DNA from: Eledone cirrhosa
Taxonomy: Eukaryota
DNA: 64,000 nt
Assembly (NCBI GenBank): GCA_964016885.1
Contig: OZ024763.1
Coordinates: 8,990,001 to 9,054,000, forward strand
Direction of reading: 5' to 3'
Shown: in pieces, positions 969-24,009 of the stretch
How the letters are laid out: the number at the start of each line of letters is the position of its first letter
How positions within the stretch are numbered: position 1 is the first letter of the stretch
Made by a program: the position numbers and the translations under genes
Notes under the pieces: generated by a model
What the model was told of the DNA's origin: nothing
What the model saw: only the letters and a program-made list of their open reading frames with translations
Databases searched by the model: none

Positions 969-1100
969 TTCTAGTTTAGATGTTGAGCTCCACTCTAAAG
1001 GCGCTGGCCTTGTTCGCTCAACTGAGGTAATATCAAAACTTTCCGCATCACTGACCACATCTATTGATCCACAACCTGCAAACTCTACTGAACCTGATTT
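969..1100 (+). CDS. Exon A of Hedge/M15-like gene ([11 protein letters not shown]...STEPD)
   Basis: tcccacag acceptor, gtgagt donor, 132 nt open, phase 2-2 matching the next exon. No domain similarity seen. Confidence 0.65.
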
Positions 1101-22100: not shown

Positions 22101-24009
22101 GGACTTTGTTATAAATTTCATTTTTGTTATATTTTATTTTATTTTTATATATTGTTATTGCCTCCTCCTTATTGAGGACGCCTTGTTTTGTAAACTCCCC
22201 CCATTGTACTTGTCCCATTTTTGATGCCCTGGTGGCAAATAAAAGAAACATATCTATCTATAAAGGAGCGGCGGTTTTCCTTTGTGTAATAGCTATGGTG
22301 AAAGAGGTTGTATGGTGGACAAGGTTAAAAGGGCTGAGGTCAGACACCTTTCTCTCCAGCCAACAACTGATTCTTTTTTTCAAATACCATTTTGGAAGAA
22401 GAATCAGGATGGAGAGAGAGGTGCTGTACCCCAGCAAGTTTTATGAAAGGTGGGTGAAAGGGGCGAGAATGGCCCGAGTGAATGGGCCTTCTCTCTATAT
22501 CAGCCTGTAGGTTGAGGAAAAAGAGGAAGAGAGGAAAGGGGTACTCACTCTTCGTACTCCTGGAGATGAGGGTTGCACATTTTTTGGGGGCTATGTGTTA
22601 CCCATATGTAATGTCTCCCCCTATTGGGGAAAATCGATTAATTTTTAAATTTAATTTGTCATAGTATTTTACACATTTTTATTGTATGTAAACTTCCCCC
22701 TTTGTATTTGTCCCCTTCTTTTGTGCCCCTGTGGCTAATAAAGAAACATATCTATCTATCTATCTATATATATATATATATATATAGTCTATATAGCTAT
22801 CTATCTATCTATCTATCTATCTATCTATCTATCTATCTATCTCACAAACCTACACCACTAAAAATAGCAGCCAGGTTTACTCGACACGCTAGGATGCCAT
22901 GCGCGCTATTTTATATATTTTATATATAGCATACTTAGATGTGTCTAGGATACGAATTCATCACCCACTGATGAGCTTGGATTGGTATTTCTATTCACAA
23001 TTAACTTTGCGAAACAACAAGTTGTCTGGGTGATTGGTAGTTACCACAATTCTGGTTGGTATTTATTTTCTTAATTTTTTCTTAAATTGAGATAAGCGAA
23101 CCCAATTGTCTATGGTTAGTATTCTTTTCACCTTAGCGAATCAGGTCTCTTTCGATTTGAACACATATATGTATATGTCTGTGTTCGTTTTTCTTTTATA
23201 TTCTATTATAATATATAGATATATATACATTATTGCATTATTGTCACAGCTCCCCTGCTTGACTCCAAGTACAACGTAGAAGACGGTGGCACAGTGAAGG
23301 AGTTGTTGTTCGGGGAAGACAACCCATCGCCTCTAATGGAACTCTTCGAACAAGAAGTTGCAATGAGAGCTTCAGGTACAGCAACAGTCTTTATTGAGAA
23401 GGATAACGACATTGATGTACTGAGGGATGTACTCAAGGTAAATGGAACACACCTTTACCTGATCATCATCATCATCATCATTATCATAACAATCATCATC
23501 GACATAAGTATCATAATCACCACCACCACTACTGCCACCACCACCACCACCACTACCACCACCATCATCATCACCCCCAATACCACCACCACCATCTTCA
23601 TCATCATCACCAACACCACCACCACCACTGCCATCACCACCACCACCACCACCAACACCACCACTATCACAACCATCATCATACTGATTAAATGAAAGAA
23701 GACAAATTAAAAAACAGCAACTTTCATCTTTTGTAGATCTTGATGGTTTACAACAATAAAATTGACAACGTTGAGTTGTACCTGAGCAATAATGTGAGTG
23801 AAGAGAAAACTTCATCATCTCTGAGAAGGAAACTGGATGTTTGGCGGAGCAGCGTTTGTCCTCGATTCAGTCGGGTGGCCGTAACCCCATTCTCTATAAC
23901 AAAGATCCCTGCGGTGAAATTACGTCGCAGTGCAGAGAAAAGCAAGCCAAGAAATGACCTTAAAATGTCAGCCGAAAACTGGGAGTTAGATTGGTTAAAC
24001 AGCCTTTAG
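969..24009 (+). CDS. Multi-exon gene (5'-partial), about 1022 aa: two Hedgehog-N-like domains + peptidase M15A-like domain + Cys-rich C-terminal region
   Basis: Hand-spliced exons: 969-1100, 3027-3194, 4099-4310, 5945-6343, 7669-7810, 9045-9253, 9495-9521, 9856-9940, 11672-12420, 13089-13191, 15666-15850, 16946-17143, 23250-23437, 23737-24009. All are AG/GT bounded, every intron phase matches, 3070 nt are open to a TAG at 24007-24009, and domain motifs run continuously across junctions. Confidence 0.85.
1780..2265. repeat. Two diverged direct copies of a ~250-bp AT-rich unit
   Basis: gggttaattag...aagaactcaatt...ggctaaaaacag...ctctggccaaat.aagagtaaaat occurs at about 1780-2020 and 2030-2265. 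Confidence 0.75.
2265..2750. repeat. Compound (TA)n microsatellite. Similar arrays at 17530-18200, 26750-27280, 27840-28065, 35400-35850, 37540-38180, 42230-42640, 59280-59635
   Basis: Direct inspection. These arrays produce the spurious IYIY ORFs. Confidence 0.95.
3027..3194 (+). CDS. Exon B ([13 protein letters not shown]...[19 protein letters not shown]), start of Hedge-like domain 1
   Basis: ttttattacag acceptor, ga/gtaaat donor, 168 nt, phase 2-2. Confidence 0.7.
3502..4069 (+). mobile_element. piggyBac-type MITE (TTAA target, CCC..GGG termini) carrying a 72-bp tandem repeat
   Basis: ttaa-cccttcaccattta ... taaatggtaaaggg-ttca, with about 6 units of gaggtaaagcctttactgtgaaaatacaatag... 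Other copies at 10322-11580, 16481-16852, 40269-40527, 43752-44305, 53567-53690. Confidence 0.75.
4099..4310 (+). CDS. Exon C, Hedge-like domain 1 (DDIVFMSE...[17 protein letters not shown]...TWPN)
   Basis: tatttcag acceptor, gtaaga donor. Resembles Hh DIIFKDEE..ADRLMTQRCKDKLNAL..QWPG. Confidence 0.85.
4500..5150. repeat. ~125-bp inverted repeat (4500-4625 / 5027-5150), Penelope-like non-coding remnant; third arm at 63755-63880
   Basis: aagttaaaacaatgaaataaaaattcaagtcattagg...tcgatctatgtaa and its reverse complement. Confidence 0.75.
5330..5895. mobile_element. ~490-bp near-perfect palindrome with a hammerhead ribozyme in each arm (non-autonomous Penelope-like element)
   Basis: Arms 5330-5574 and 5575-5820 are centred on AAGCTT. 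Same family at 59640-60100, 60360-61000 and 35025-35400. Confidence 0.8.
5372..5434 (-). ncRNA. Minimal type I hammerhead ribozyme
   Basis: attttat-CTGATGA-aagcacacca(loop)tggtgtcctt-GAAA-tatgtaTA-atgaaat on the minus strand. The mirror copy at 5715-5777 (+) has the core mutated to ATGATGA. Confidence 0.75.
5945..6343 (+). CDS. Exon D, Hedge-like domain 1 C-half ([11 protein letters not shown]...[10 protein letters not shown]...[13 protein letters not shown]) plus acidic linker
   Basis: tttttgtag acceptor, gtaaga donor, 399 nt open. Resembles Hh KLRVTEGWDE..HYEGRAVDIT..LARLAVEAGFDWV. Confidence 0.85.
6487..7371 (+). mobile_element. Internally deleted mariner (Tc1/mariner) element, ~100-bp TIRs, TA target
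   Basis: HTH region ([26 protein letters not shown]). [14 protein letters not shown] is fused directly to [11 protein letters not shown], deleting most of the DDD core. Termini gaggtaggtcagaaaagttccagg / cctggaacttttctgacctacctcg. Confidence 0.9.
7669..7810 (+). CDS. Exon E, start of Hedge-like domain 2 ([30 protein letters not shown])
   Basis: attccag acceptor, gtaggt donor, phase 1-2. Confidence 0.8.
7841..8450. repeat. 46-bp minisatellite, ~13 copies, related to the RTE 3' UTR; related array at 38322-38630
   Basis: Unit accagtccacactgtaaagtggttgtgttggtgtcacaataaaaag. Confidence 0.9.
8503..8780 (+). mobile_element. tRNA-derived SINE (degraded)
   Basis: A box tggcctagtgg and B-like ggtttgattcc, followed by cttgagcaaaacacttc and gatggactggcatcctgtccag segments typical of conserved-domain SINEs. 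Confidence 0.65.
8790..9044. repeat. ~18-bp minisatellite (tttatattttataacag/ctg) ending at the exon F acceptor
   Basis: Direct inspection. Confidence 0.8.
9045..9253 (+). CDS. Exon F, Hedge-like domain 2 (DDIEFAVE...[22 protein letters not shown])
   Basis: ataacag acceptor, gtgagt donor. Paralogous to exon C, including the NWC..C..C..C insert. Confidence 0.85.
9495..9521 (+). CDS. 27-nt microexon (EKKVTQKTP)
   Basis: tatttatctttcag acceptor, g/gtatgt donor, phase 1-1, open in frame. Confidence 0.55.
9856..9940 (+). CDS. Exon H, Hedge-like domain 2 ([10 protein letters not shown]...NPLYREGR)
   Basis: tttgcag acceptor, ag/gtaagt donor. Aligns to Hh KLRVTEGWDE...SLHYEGR. Confidence 0.85.
10461..11140. 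mobile_element. hAT (Charlie-like) MITE inserted in a piggyBac-type MITE
   Basis: TIRs caaaggttctcaac / gttgagaacctgtg. Perfect 8-bp TSD tgttagat at 10453-10460 and 11141-11148. Internal GC-rich hairpin at about 10530-10682. Confidence 0.85.
11672..12420 (+). CDS. Exon I: end of Hedge-like domain 2 ([19 protein letters not shown]) and peptidase M15A-like domain
   Basis: cattacag acceptor, g/gtaaat donor. [41 protein letters not shown] follows the Peptidase M15A/M15_3 pattern. Confidence 0.88.
13089..13191 (+). CDS. Exon J ([18 protein letters not shown]...)
   Basis: tattacag acceptor, gtgagt donor, phase 1-2. Confidence 0.75.
13290..15640. repeat. 2.3-kb GGT-rich minisatellite (ggtatggctgtaatggtagtggtggtgtggtggt, variable ~33-45-bp unit)
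   Basis: Direct inspection. Fills almost the whole intron. Confidence 0.95.
15666..15850 (+). CDS. Exon K ([14 protein letters not shown]...[13 protein letters not shown])
   Basis: tgttgtag acceptor, g/gtagtt donor, phase 2-1, Cys-rich. Confidence 0.8.
16946..17143 (+). CDS. Exon L ([13 protein letters not shown]...[19 protein letters not shown])
   Basis: caacag acceptor, g/gtaaac donor, 198 nt open, phase 1-1. Confidence 0.8.
18359..19249 (+). mobile_element. Second copy of the internally deleted mariner element
   Basis: Same TIRs and same deletion junction ([14 protein letters not shown]) as 6487-7371. Confidence 0.9.
19359..22250 (+). mobile_element. 5'-truncated Tx1/L1-clade LINE, open 875-aa ORF2 part (RT + C-terminal zinc finger), in a (TATC)n target
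   Basis: [70 protein letters not shown]. 3' end aataaaagaaaca. 21-bp TSD tatctatctataaaggagcgg at 19338-19358 and 22251-22271. GC-rich relative to flanks. Confidence 0.95.
22263..22748 (+). mobile_element. Short older 3' fragment of the same Tx1 family
   Basis: [29 protein letters not shown]...[10 protein letters not shown]. Ends ggctaataaagaaaca followed by (TATC)n. Confidence 0.9.
22960..23034 (+). ncRNA. Type I hammerhead ribozyme, intronic, sense to the host gene
   Basis: Stem I atcaccca/tgggtgat (8 bp), CTGATGA at 22968-22974, gc..gc stem II base, GAAA at 23011, stem III acaac-aa-gttgt, GUC cleavage triplet ending at 23026. Confidence 0.85.
23250..23437 (+). CDS. Exon M (APLLDSKY...[17 protein letters not shown] segment...DVLRDVLK)
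   Basis: gtcacag acceptor, aag/gtaaat donor, phase 1-0. Confidence 0.8.
23737..24009 (+). CDS. Terminal coding exon (ILMVYNNK...[10 protein letters not shown])
   Basis: cttttgtag acceptor, phase 0, TAG stop. Candidate AATAAA at 24447-24452. Confidence 0.8.
   Translation: MLMVYNNKIDNVELYLSNNVSEEKTSSSLRRKLDVWRSSVCPRFSRVAVTPFSITKIPAVKLRRSAEKSKPRNDLKMSAENWELDWLNSL

Follow-up and report, generated by a model that had tools for sequence, protein, structure and literature searches.

How the Hedgehog signalling domain arose is still debated, and the case has so far been argued from Hedgehog, Hedgling and bacterial Hh proteins. Hedgling, found in sponges, cnidarians and choanoflagellates, has an Hh-N domain without Hog and an incomplete zinc site; sponges and choanoflagellates are reported to be without Hh (PMC6027127). 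Hedglets were named in passing by Jägers and Roelink in 2021, called enigmatic and assumed to be Hedgehog-derived. In the text and part of the supplement of that paper, they are known from an Hh segment of approximately 105 aa only, are limited to lophotrochozoans, amphioxus and echinoderms, and are suggested to derive from Hh (PMC8052667). An 'hh-like' EST of the sponge Oscarella (row Os_hhlike, a 199-column fragment) was noted to be without Hog and VWA, and no family was defined for it (Bürglin 2008, PMC2362128, additional file 10). We analyzed a window of 64,000 nucleotides of octopus DNA, and here describe a gene in it that we assign to the long, mollusc-type Hedglets, with two Hh-N-like domains, an M15A-like domain and a CD38-like predicted tail.

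Fourteen exons with AG/GT junctions on the plus strand gave 3070 nt and an open frame of 1022 aa (Table 1). A first set of 12 exons, chosen by eye, had given a 957-aa frame under AG/GT splicing with one stop, which was terminal. Exon 9 was recovered by tblastn with the O. sinensis orthologue, and exon 14 was found by reading the sequence directly. The motifs quoted in the sequence-only reading were located in plus-strand frames where it had placed them, two of them (17 protein letters) being visible after splicing only. The product of the per-exon probabilities of a stop-free, AG-preceded stretch was 2e-12, a crude chance figure that ignores the choosing of exons; the real control is therefore the orthologue match, and the 1022-aa product was 65.5% identical to O. 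bimaculoides P0002 over 1032 columns. The proposal of 14 phase-consistent exons in one chain was thus borne out.

The gene starts outside the window. A check upstream, as had been advised, revealed seven further exons 1.5–8.1 kb away (G000:C24:8981896-8988544), making 21 exons in total, and exons 1–7 include a signal-peptide-like start. In the assembly the reading frame is broken in exon 5, where two bases are missing. These bases were present in 3/3 covering sequencing runs (one sample), which indicates that the apparent frameshift is an assembly error; the runs ruled out a pseudogene on this ground, and an alternative in-frame acceptor for exon 5 was unnecessary. An annotation artefact, in which exons of separate neighbouring genes or of a broken gene were joined, could also be suspected from the O. 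sinensis model, flagged LOW QUALITY, and from the late beginning of the O. bimaculoides model. Against it, orthologues of 1435–1463 aa are encoded on contigs of 4.7–4.9 kb, necessarily spliced transcripts, and the domain order is identical in the mapped full-length gastropod, bivalve and octopod orthologues. Moreover, the end of Hh-N-like domain 2 and the entire M15A-like domain lie in one exon, so their linkage is independent of splicing. The artefact reading is already largely refuted and can be given almost no credence.

Table 1. Exons of the Hedglet gene within the window, with the M15A-like domain (exons numbered from the gene start).
Feature	Positions	Strand	Content
Exon 8 of 21, first in window	969..1100	+	Final strands of beta-rich N-terminal region; linker
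Exon 9	3027..3194	+	Hh-N-like domain 1 begins
Exon 10	4099..4310	+	Hh-N-like domain 1: DDIVF, Cys-rich insert, DRMV helix
Exon 11	5945..6343	+	Hh-N-like domain 1, second half; H141 to Tyr (6043-6045), D148 to Gln (6064-6066)
Exon 12	7669..7810	+	Hh-N-like domain 2 begins
Exon 13	9045..9253	+	Hh-N-like domain 2: DDIEF, Cys-rich insert, RRVM helix
Exon 14	9495..9521	+	27-nt loop exon, found by eye; counterpart is a short insert in O. sinensis and O. bimaculoides proteins
Exon 15	9856..9940	+	Hh-N-like domain 2; H141 to Tyr (9927-9929)
Exon 16	11672..12420	+	End of Hh-N-like domain 2 (D148 to Gln, H183 to Glu) and entire M15A-like domain
M15A-like domain	11901-12389	+	Within exon 16; zinc triad H/D/H to Phe/Glu/Tyr
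Exon 17	13089..13191	+	Linker
Exon 18	15666..15850	+	CD38/ADP-ribosyl-cyclase-like domain begins: Cys-rich, helical
Exon 19	16946..17143	+	Cyclase-like domain; Glu 17116-17118 at would-be place of TLEDTL glutamate (by-eye mapping)
Exon 20	23250..23437	+	Cyclase-like domain; near-invariant NPxP; near-invariant Asp/Glu after central strand
Exon 21	23737..24009	+	End of cyclase-like domain, dibasic RRS site, conserved C-terminal helix, stop codon (24007-24009)

Pfam HH_signal matched 4/4 full-length orthologues at 53–81 bits (cut-off, 22.1). Folds were predicted with AlphaFold2 from the O. bimaculoides orthologue; in the model, Hh-N-like domain 2 superposed on ShhN with Z 19–20 and rmsd 1.7 over approximately 148 residues; identity of the Hh-N-like domains to ShhN was 23–27%. 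Two Hh-N-like domains, as first read from the sequence, are therefore present. The expected absence of Hog, VWA and cadherin also held, as none of Hint, VWA and cadherin was reported at E<=5 in a Pfam scan of the four full-length orthologues; the same scan detects Hint in other proteins. No transmembrane segment or EGF was seen in the protein. The Hedgehog set of zinc triad H141/D148/H183 plus E177 is not retained: the triad is Y/Q/E in both Hh-N-like domains of the window, the third position being poorly aligned in domain 1. It is intact in 0/68 Hh-like domains of the family and in 4/4 reference Hh (the Hh of the same genome and three bacterial Hh). Two of the three calcium positions examined were lost in both domains. 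The octopus genome also harbors a true hh gene (at G000:C8), and a search for short-form paralogues, a stricter first look, matched the present gene and hh only.

The protein therefore shares the Hh-N fold and an HH_signal match above the cut-off with Hedgehog (Shh/Ihh/Dhh and octopus Hh), but it lacks Hint/SRR, the zinc triad and the CGPGR start: no Cys-Gly-Pro-Gly-Arg follows the signal peptide, whereas CGPGR is present in exon 1 of the hh gene of the same genome. In addition, its Hh domains are internal and doubled and carry a Cys-rich insert, and the intron in the Hh-N helix of that hh gene is missing from both repeats. The introns flanking exons 10 and 13 are identical in position and phase. 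Hedgling resembles it in having Hh-N without Hog and an incomplete zinc site, and differs in its VWA, cadherin, EGF and transmembrane parts; in the octopus protein, the Hh domains lie inside the chain, ahead of the M15A-like and cyclase-like domains.

The M15A-like domain showed 33% identity to P0142 (pairwise E 3e-16), a protein that passes Pfam Peptidase_M15_3 (E 1.5e-15) and matches the Streptomyces Zn DD-peptidase 1lbu (E 3.5e-5). The O. sinensis M15A-like domain matched the phage endolysin phrog_894 (E 2.2e-4). These results support the M15A-like domain proposed for the chain and relate it by sequence to the M15A peptidases of the LAS fold. The recommended checks gave a divided result: HH_signal was matched in orthologues, but the window exon had no match to Pfam M15 families at E<=1, and the ShhN-like model of the Hh domain was accompanied by an M15-like part at Z 5.8 only in the whole-model structure search, under the reliable level of the tool. 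Unlike M15A zinc D-Ala-D-Ala peptidases and M15 phage endolysins, the Hedglet domain sits inside an intron-rich animal gene and has F621/E628/Y671 at the H-x6-D and final His ligand positions. Across the family, the zinc triad is kept in 5/99 M15-like domains; the first M15-like domain of the family member P0054 retains H/D/H. F/E/Y occupies the degenerate pocket in 21/99, and this conservation suggests that a binding role was retained.

The last approximately 250 aa are predicted to form a two-lobed CD38/ADP-ribosyl-cyclase fold (Z 10.4–12.1), and Foldseek matched the tail model to this fold with E 1.4e-5. The match (Z 11–12, rmsd 3.5–4.9) spans approximately 200 of the ~240 CD38 residues, at 12–15% identity to CD38, CD157 and Aplysia ADP-ribosyl cyclase. 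Unlike these enzymes, the tail is fused behind peptidase-fold domains, and no scanned family member matched Pfam Rib_hydrolayse; the family profile did not match CD38 at E<=10, and an atlas search with the tail gave 0.76 at best. TLEDTL is the ADP-ribosyl cyclase signature (PMC6368836). It is absent here: T.ED was found in 2/59 rows, and the window has CVEAIP. The catalytic state was assessed by visual inspection of motifs. By-eye mapping of the 59 rows placed no conserved Glu in the two helices expected to hold CD38 Glu226, the expected catalytic helix (other columns, <=15% acidic), nor did any cleft position examined hold a conserved Trp. A nearby column, but one with the 33:25 Asp/Glu mix of a capping residue where a helix begins, is Asp/Glu in 58/59 rows, and an acidic residue fills the TLEDTL-like position in 41/59. 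Within the family, no module is shared more widely than the cyclase-like domain together with its preceding M15-like domain; this module also occurs behind predicted membrane helices in giant proteins.

The N-terminal approximately 460 aa are predicted to be all-beta with long strands. No clear structural match was obtained for this region (best Z<=6.8), and a word-based search returned one match, itself, among 7999 candidates. The atlas leads were all <0.9 (bacterial hypothetical proteins, 0.87; DUF7029/DUF7223, 0.80). Sharing of the region with the choanoflagellate P0043 was considered and rejected, as there was no profile match and the real segment fell outside the top six of 200 shuffles. 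Most long forms tested have 31–33 Cys and 17–19 N-glycosylation sequons; with a hydrophobic N-terminus and no second hydrophobic segment, this predicts that the protein is secreted. The architecture outlined by the sequence-only reading was thus correct for the Hh-N pair and the M15A-like domain, and had missed the CD38-like domain, the beta-rich region and the loss of all zinc sites.

That reading had also proposed a distinct, poorly characterised family. This stands, except that the family already has a name. The listed Hedglet XP_002607850.1 is P0167 by accession, and its alignment with the O. sinensis orthologue P0001 spans 742 columns and runs through to the C-terminus (25% identity, E 4e-61). 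The octopus protein is a lophotrochozoan protein with an Hh-N-like domain whose catalytic residues are lost, and is neither Hh nor Hedgling; a degenerate Hh zinc site and the absence of Hog are common to it and the listed Hedglet. In an unrooted Hh-domain tree from which Hedgling was absent, true Hh and bacterial Hh split off at 100/100, and the backbone joining long and short forms was unstarred. The seven Hedglet entries of PMC8052667 all take short-form positions and include no cephalopod; the text and supplement part covered describe no M15A-like, cyclase-like or tandem-Hh architecture. Our literature searches returned nothing on the Hedglet architecture, the C-terminal CD38-like predicted fold, the mollusc tandem-Hh long form, or the sponge and choanoflagellate members.

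The recommended survey of orthologues revealed the long form in gastropods, bivalves and octopods. A short form (M15A-Hh-M15A-cyclase-like), without the beta-rich region, occurs in an annelid, echinoderms, hemichordates, amphioxus, a sponge and a choanoflagellate. In two choanoflagellate relatives, the fusion partners are wall peptidases that score above the Pfam cut-off: P0043 carries Peptidase_M15_4 (E 3.4e-10), and P0077 carries Peptidase_M23 (E 1.7e-7). Visual inspection of the sponge P0030 suggested VanY-, PGBD- and amidase-like segments, but Pfam, PHROGs and NCBIfam gave no confirmation. In the Oscarella Os_hhlike fragment, the Hh domain runs, by eye, straight into a Hedglet-type linker and M15A-like domain, and the fragment is probably a member of the family. 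Members in a sponge and a choanoflagellate make it likely that the family is older than Hedgehog, and go against the published derivation of Hedglets from Hedgehog.

For the function, we tentatively propose, with somewhat less than even confidence, a secreted, catalytically dead multi-domain binder of bacterial peptidoglycan with zinc-less peptidase-fold domains and a CD38-like tail. Zinc-less peptidoglycan-recognition proteins bind wall stem peptides without cleavage, and by analogy the three peptidase-fold clefts may hold such peptides by avidity, without cutting. The chain would likely be cleaved at its dibasic sites, and the cyclase-like domain would likely serve as a non-catalytic scaffold or a nucleotide-binding output module, in a likely setting of bacterial capture or innate recognition at wet surfaces. 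The M15 ancestry of the third domain, the wall-peptidase partners of choanoflagellate relatives and the H/D/H of P0054 support peptidoglycan binding, and the general zinc loss across the family supports a dead binder. The named relatives live in water and many feed on suspended or deposited matter, which also counts for this reading. However, the wall-peptidase partners belong to choanoflagellate relatives and not to the mollusc protein, the low M15-like Z and the missing Pfam M15 match of the window exon weaken the case, and octopods, which keep the gene, are predators and not bacterivores. Zinc loss may also have abolished substrate binding, since the zinc centre of Shh is required for matrix association (PMC8052667). 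The same loss argues against a secreted matrix or mucus glycoprotein, whose dead Hh-N domains would bind host proteoglycans while the beta-rich region polymerises or anchors. We consider this unlikely, although Hh-N structures have been solved with heparin and chondroitin sulphate bound, and the protein is large, Cys-rich and sequon-rich, with dibasic sites and a long-stranded beta region. No known matrix module was found in the Pfam scan of four full-length orthologues, the beta region is missing from the short form, choanoflagellate relatives bear wall peptidases, and the heparan-sulphate-binding N-terminal Hh motif (PMC8052667) has no counterpart in the protein.

An active secreted NAD+ glycohydrolase/cyclase, with a shifted acidic residue and aimed or switched on at bacterial surfaces by the peptidase-fold domains, would suit the fold match of the tail (Z 11–12), the Asp/Glu column, the often acidic TLEDTL-like position and the wide sharing of the cyclase-like and M15-like module. 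Bacterial cyclase toxins show that the cyclase fold works against bacteria (PMC12356396). We regard such activity as improbable, given the missing Rib_hydrolayse and CD38 profile matches, the rarity of T.ED, the absence of a conserved Glu or cleft Trp at the mapped places, and an acid behaving as a capping residue. A Hedgehog-pathway decoy or modulator binding Patched, HHIP or CDO/Ihog is very improbable and the least likely of the three roles first suggested. It would fit the close superposition of domain 2 on ShhN and the true hh gene in the same genome, but the N-terminal CGPGR segment, through which Hh binds Patched (PMC8052667), is absent, the zinc ligands and most tested calcium ligands are lost, identity to ShhN is low, and relatives occur in lineages reported without Hh (PMC6027127).

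These findings give Hedglets a fixed multi-domain core (Hh-N, M15A-like and CD38-like predicted fold), which a sponge and a choanoflagellate share, and suggest that they are probably a third ancient Hedgehog-domain lineage. They probably account for the orphan sponge EST of 2006–2008, show a single chain that carries one fold in both its animal-type and its bacterial-type version, and add an unannotated branch to the CD38 fold. A bolder reading, improbable as a whole, is that this third lineage is pre-animal and comprises secreted bacterial-wall sensors coupled to a working CD38-type NAD enzyme. The choanoflagellate-animal ancestor would have built Hedglets from bacterial wall peptidases, to be kept from choanoflagellates to octopus and amphioxus, and the same M15A/Hh pool would have joined Hint repeatedly (M15A-LDLa-Hint proteins, zinc sites intact). 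On this reading, Hedgehog itself would have arisen as one product of an antibacterial toolkit.

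The octopod proteins were the nearest matches to the Hedglet-type gene (74% over the largest exon). The protein motifs quoted in the sequence-only reading were present where it had placed them, and its 14-exon gene was borne out. When spliced, the exons total 3070 nt and give a 1022-aa frame with a single stop at the end, which was 65.5% identical over 1032 columns to the O. bimaculoides orthologue (LOC106872581), 64% to that of O. sinensis and 50% to that of Argonauta. The 5' exons and any signal peptide that the reading had proposed to look for upstream were sought there, and seven exons were found; their start, Met and a hydrophobic stretch, is read as a putative signal peptide. 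In upstream exon 5 the reading frame is broken in the assembly. Of four runs compared, three had contigs over the site, and all three (one sample) carried two bases that the assembly lacks, so the break is an assembly error, at which automated annotation of the Eledone assembly would split the gene. With the error corrected, the full coding sequence would, by arithmetic, be 4329 nt, or about 1442 aa. Evidence for one chain came from the exon at 11672-12420, which carries the last part of the second Hh domain together with the whole M15-like domain, and from orthologues of 1435-1463 aa that sit on 4.7-4.9-kb contigs. The window (G000:C24:8990001-9054000), part of a 3.0-Gb genome, is AT-rich and dense in microsatellites and retroelements.

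Exons of the Hedglet-type gene and other features in and around the window (positions within the window unless a contig is named)
Feature	Location	Strand	Observation
Exons in window, first five	969-1100, 3027-3194, 4099-4310, 5945-6343, 7669-7810	+	canonical AG/GT ends
Exons in window, next four	9045-9253, 9495-9521, 9856-9940, 11672-12420	+	canonical AG/GT ends
Exons in window, last five	13089-13191, 15666-15850, 16946-17143, 23250-23437, 23737-24009	+	canonical AG/GT ends
Seven upstream exons	G000:C24:8981896-8988544		
Exon-5 frame break	G000:C24:8987206 (L002:7206)		
AT-rich minisatellite unit	3630-4060, 11150-11570, 16630-16860, about 40400, about 43800		often directly before an exon of the gene
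Mariner-like transposase remnants	6495-7305, 18560-19217	+	two, intronic; HTH_32/HTH_48
Reverse-transcriptase frame, 922 aa	19218-21986	+	LINE-type, RVT_1 E 2.3e-25; in the gene's long intron
Second copy of the 3' end of that element	22115-22510	+	
RTE-like LINE copy	29924-32683	-	endonuclease, RT, PHD finger; 919-aa open frame
RTE-like LINE copy	56249-58154	+	endonuclease, RT, PHD finger
RTE-like LINE copy	61756-62763	+	endonuclease, RT, PHD finger
Frames Penelope-like by eye	32673-33867	-	from a presumed GIY-YIG-type motif; no Pfam match at E<=0.001
Open frame, 243 aa	44879-45610	+	Cys/His clusters; weak zinc-finger matches (E about 0.1)
Open frame, 412 aa	50970-52211	-	CARD domain (Pfam E 1e-7) and a Gly/Asp-rich repeat of 13 residues; a probable immune- or apoptosis-gene exon
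Cytochrome P450 gene exons	G000:C24 about 8954900-8969900 (L005-L004)	+	heme motif by eye; lie upstream, stopping about 12 kb before the Hedglet-type gene's first exon
True hedgehog gene	G000:C8:22081474-22148100 (L010, L011)		exons 1-2 about 66 kb apart

Pfam HH_signal was above cut-off in 4/4 full-length orthologues, in keeping with the Hedgehog-N-like domains proposed from sequence, and no other Pfam family was above cut-off in these four. The O. bimaculoides protein was modelled with AlphaFold2 (65-row alignment, mean pLDDT 85.7, pTM 0.76), and residues 383-572 of the model matched Hedgehog N-domains (Z 19-20, rmsd 1.7). The first repeat matched VanX in this model (Z 8.3); when a clam orthologue was modelled as well, the repeat matched Hedgehog (Z 12-13.5). 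Two intron positions and phases are common to both repeats. In the domain tree each repeat has a starred clade of its own (99/96 and 100/97), and both clades contain octopods, gastropods and bivalves. These observations point to an exon duplication that would predate the divergence of these classes. Zinc sites were counted with profiles built from the collected family proteins after removal of 24 redundant cluster members. The triad was intact in 0/68 Hh-like domains and the Asp ligand was kept in one; a few rows are partial, and the third position is poorly aligned in the first repeat. Both window domains carry Y/Q/E at the triad, subject to that same third position in domain 1. The triad was intact in Eledone's own Hedgehog and three bacterial Hh proteins.

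The third domain proved M15A-like by sequence, as had been claimed: the O. sinensis domain matched the phrog_894 endolysin (E 2.2e-4), and the window exon was 33% identical (E 3e-16) to P0142, an M15A peptidase that matches Pfam Peptidase_M15_3 (E 1.5e-15) and the Streptomyces DD-peptidase 1lbu. In the structure search of the whole model, the third domain scored weakly (Z 5.8). The window domain has F/E/Y at the zinc-triad positions. H/D/H was kept in 5/99 M15-like domains, namely P0142, the first domain of the family member P0054, and P0110, P0146 and P0155. In the last three, the zinc-intact M15A-like domain is fused to an LDLa and Hint module, a Hedgehog-like design (peptidase fold and Hog) made with a different LAS domain; these proteins may be related to Lophohog or may have arisen by a fusion of their own. 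P0142 and its cluster members P0184 and P0185 are stand-alone M15A peptidases with a signal peptide and an intact zinc site, on contigs of up to 1.3 Mb.

The Hh-Hh-M15A part of the proposed architecture stood, and the last ~250 residues, which the sequence-only reading had left uninterpreted, are predicted to adopt a CD38-like fold. In an unbiased structure search, this tail matched CD38, Aplysia ADP-ribosyl cyclase and CD157 (Z 11.2, 11.2 and 10.4), with the next unrelated rows at Z 6.4 and lower. Foldseek matched it to the cyclase fold (E 1.4e-5), and in a second structure comparison, which spanned ~200 residues with 12-15% identity, Z reached 12.1. This CD38/ADP-ribosyl-cyclase resemblance had been noted before the fold prediction was run. 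The N-terminal ~460 residues are predicted to be all-beta (mean pLDDT 67.8) and gave no clear match in structure searches of the model.

A full phmmer search with the O. bimaculoides orthologue (P0002) gave 183 matches with E<=0.001; the listing covered 150 of them. Names were looked up for 30, and none of these was from a vertebrate, arthropod, nematode or cnidarian. Among these names, the long form (beta region-Hh-Hh-M15-cyclase-like) was found only in molluscs. A short form of ~920-970 aa (signal-M15-Hh-M15-cyclase-like) was found in Glandiceps, Saccoglossus (partial), Anneissia, Asterias, Branchiostoma, Owenia and bivalves; its core also forms the end of two larger proteins, one of 2253 aa in Oscarella pearsei (trypsin and PLAT domains) and one of 2145 aa in the choanoflagellate Craspedida sp. 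UC1 (C2 and Peptidase_M15_4). By eye, the O. pearsei protein P0030 has extra segments that look like an amidase, VanY-type peptidases and peptidoglycan-binding helices; Pfam, PHROGs and NCBIfam gave these segments no support. The M15-cyclase-like form, with no Hh domain detected, was found in Didymoeca costata (where a Peptidase_M23 is inserted), in Salpingoeca urceolata and in giant proteins with predicted membrane helices. In P0071, P0087, P0091, P0137 and P0141 (2700-4300 aa, some with fn3/Ig/TNFR-like repeats) the M15-like and cyclase-like module comes after predicted membrane helices, possibly a receptor arrangement. Of 73 Hh-like domain rows, 6 were left out as partial or badly aligned. 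In an unrooted tree of the other 67, with no Hedgling row among them, true Hh and bacterial Hh lay on one side of a 100/100 branch, with the backbone unstarred. The choanoflagellate row joined three other rows (100/99) apart from the animals, a grouping that argues against animal contamination.

On the reading favoured over its rivals, though tentatively, the Hedglet chain may be a pseudo-enzyme in which three zinc-less peptidase-fold clefts would grip peptidoglycan without cleaving it. This reading draws on the M15A ancestry, the conserved metal-free pocket and the intact wall peptidases fused in choanoflagellate relatives. The domain order and the lost zinc ligands are shown at the level of sequence, whereas the folds and secretion are predicted. 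A secreted binder of matrix or mucus glycans is conceivable and rather doubtful.

The cyclase-like tail raises the reading of an active NAD enzyme that would be directed by the peptidase-fold domains, a reading that we regard as improbable. TLEDTL, given as the cyclase signature in the accessible part of PMC6368836, was missing from the cyclase-like domains, with T.ED in 2/59 rows. The position matching its glutamate was acidic in 41/59. In the helix pair expected to contain Glu226, placed with the help of CD38 motifs and the predicted secondary structure and not from coordinates, no column was more than 15% acidic except a helix-start Asp/Glu (58/59) and its looser neighbour two residues before (56%). 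NAD-enzyme activity of the tail thus appears unlikely. Hedgehog-like repeats in a genome with a true hedgehog gene bring to mind a Hedgehog decoy, which we consider very improbable. The gene is intact and conserved, and an artefact is hardly credible.

In the accessible part of Jägers & Roelink (2021; PMC8052667), Hedglets were named from a ~105-aa segment and predicted to be non-catalytic, their distribution was called enigmatic and derivation from Hh was suggested. The alignment of their Hedglet XP_002607850.1 (P0167) to the octopus orthologue reaches the C-terminus. Within the literature searched, the term occurs only in that paper and its preprint. An Oscarella hh-like EST without Hog and VWA, described in the part of Bürglin (2008; PMC2362128) available, continues by eye into the M15-like domain of the Hedglet family. 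The part of Roelink (2018; PMC6027127) consulted covers the LAS background and reports Hh to be lacking in sponges and protists. The open literature searched, with subscription papers mostly outside it, contained no description of the Hh-M15-cyclase-like architecture or of five locus ids of the family; unread supplements, such as proteome tables, could list Hedglet-family proteins. The Eledone gene is very probably a long Hedglet with Hh-Hh-M15-cyclase-like architecture, a conclusion firmer than any on function. What is new is a long variant of a named but undescribed family, with a predicted, hitherto unannotated CD38-like fold and a distribution deeper than published.
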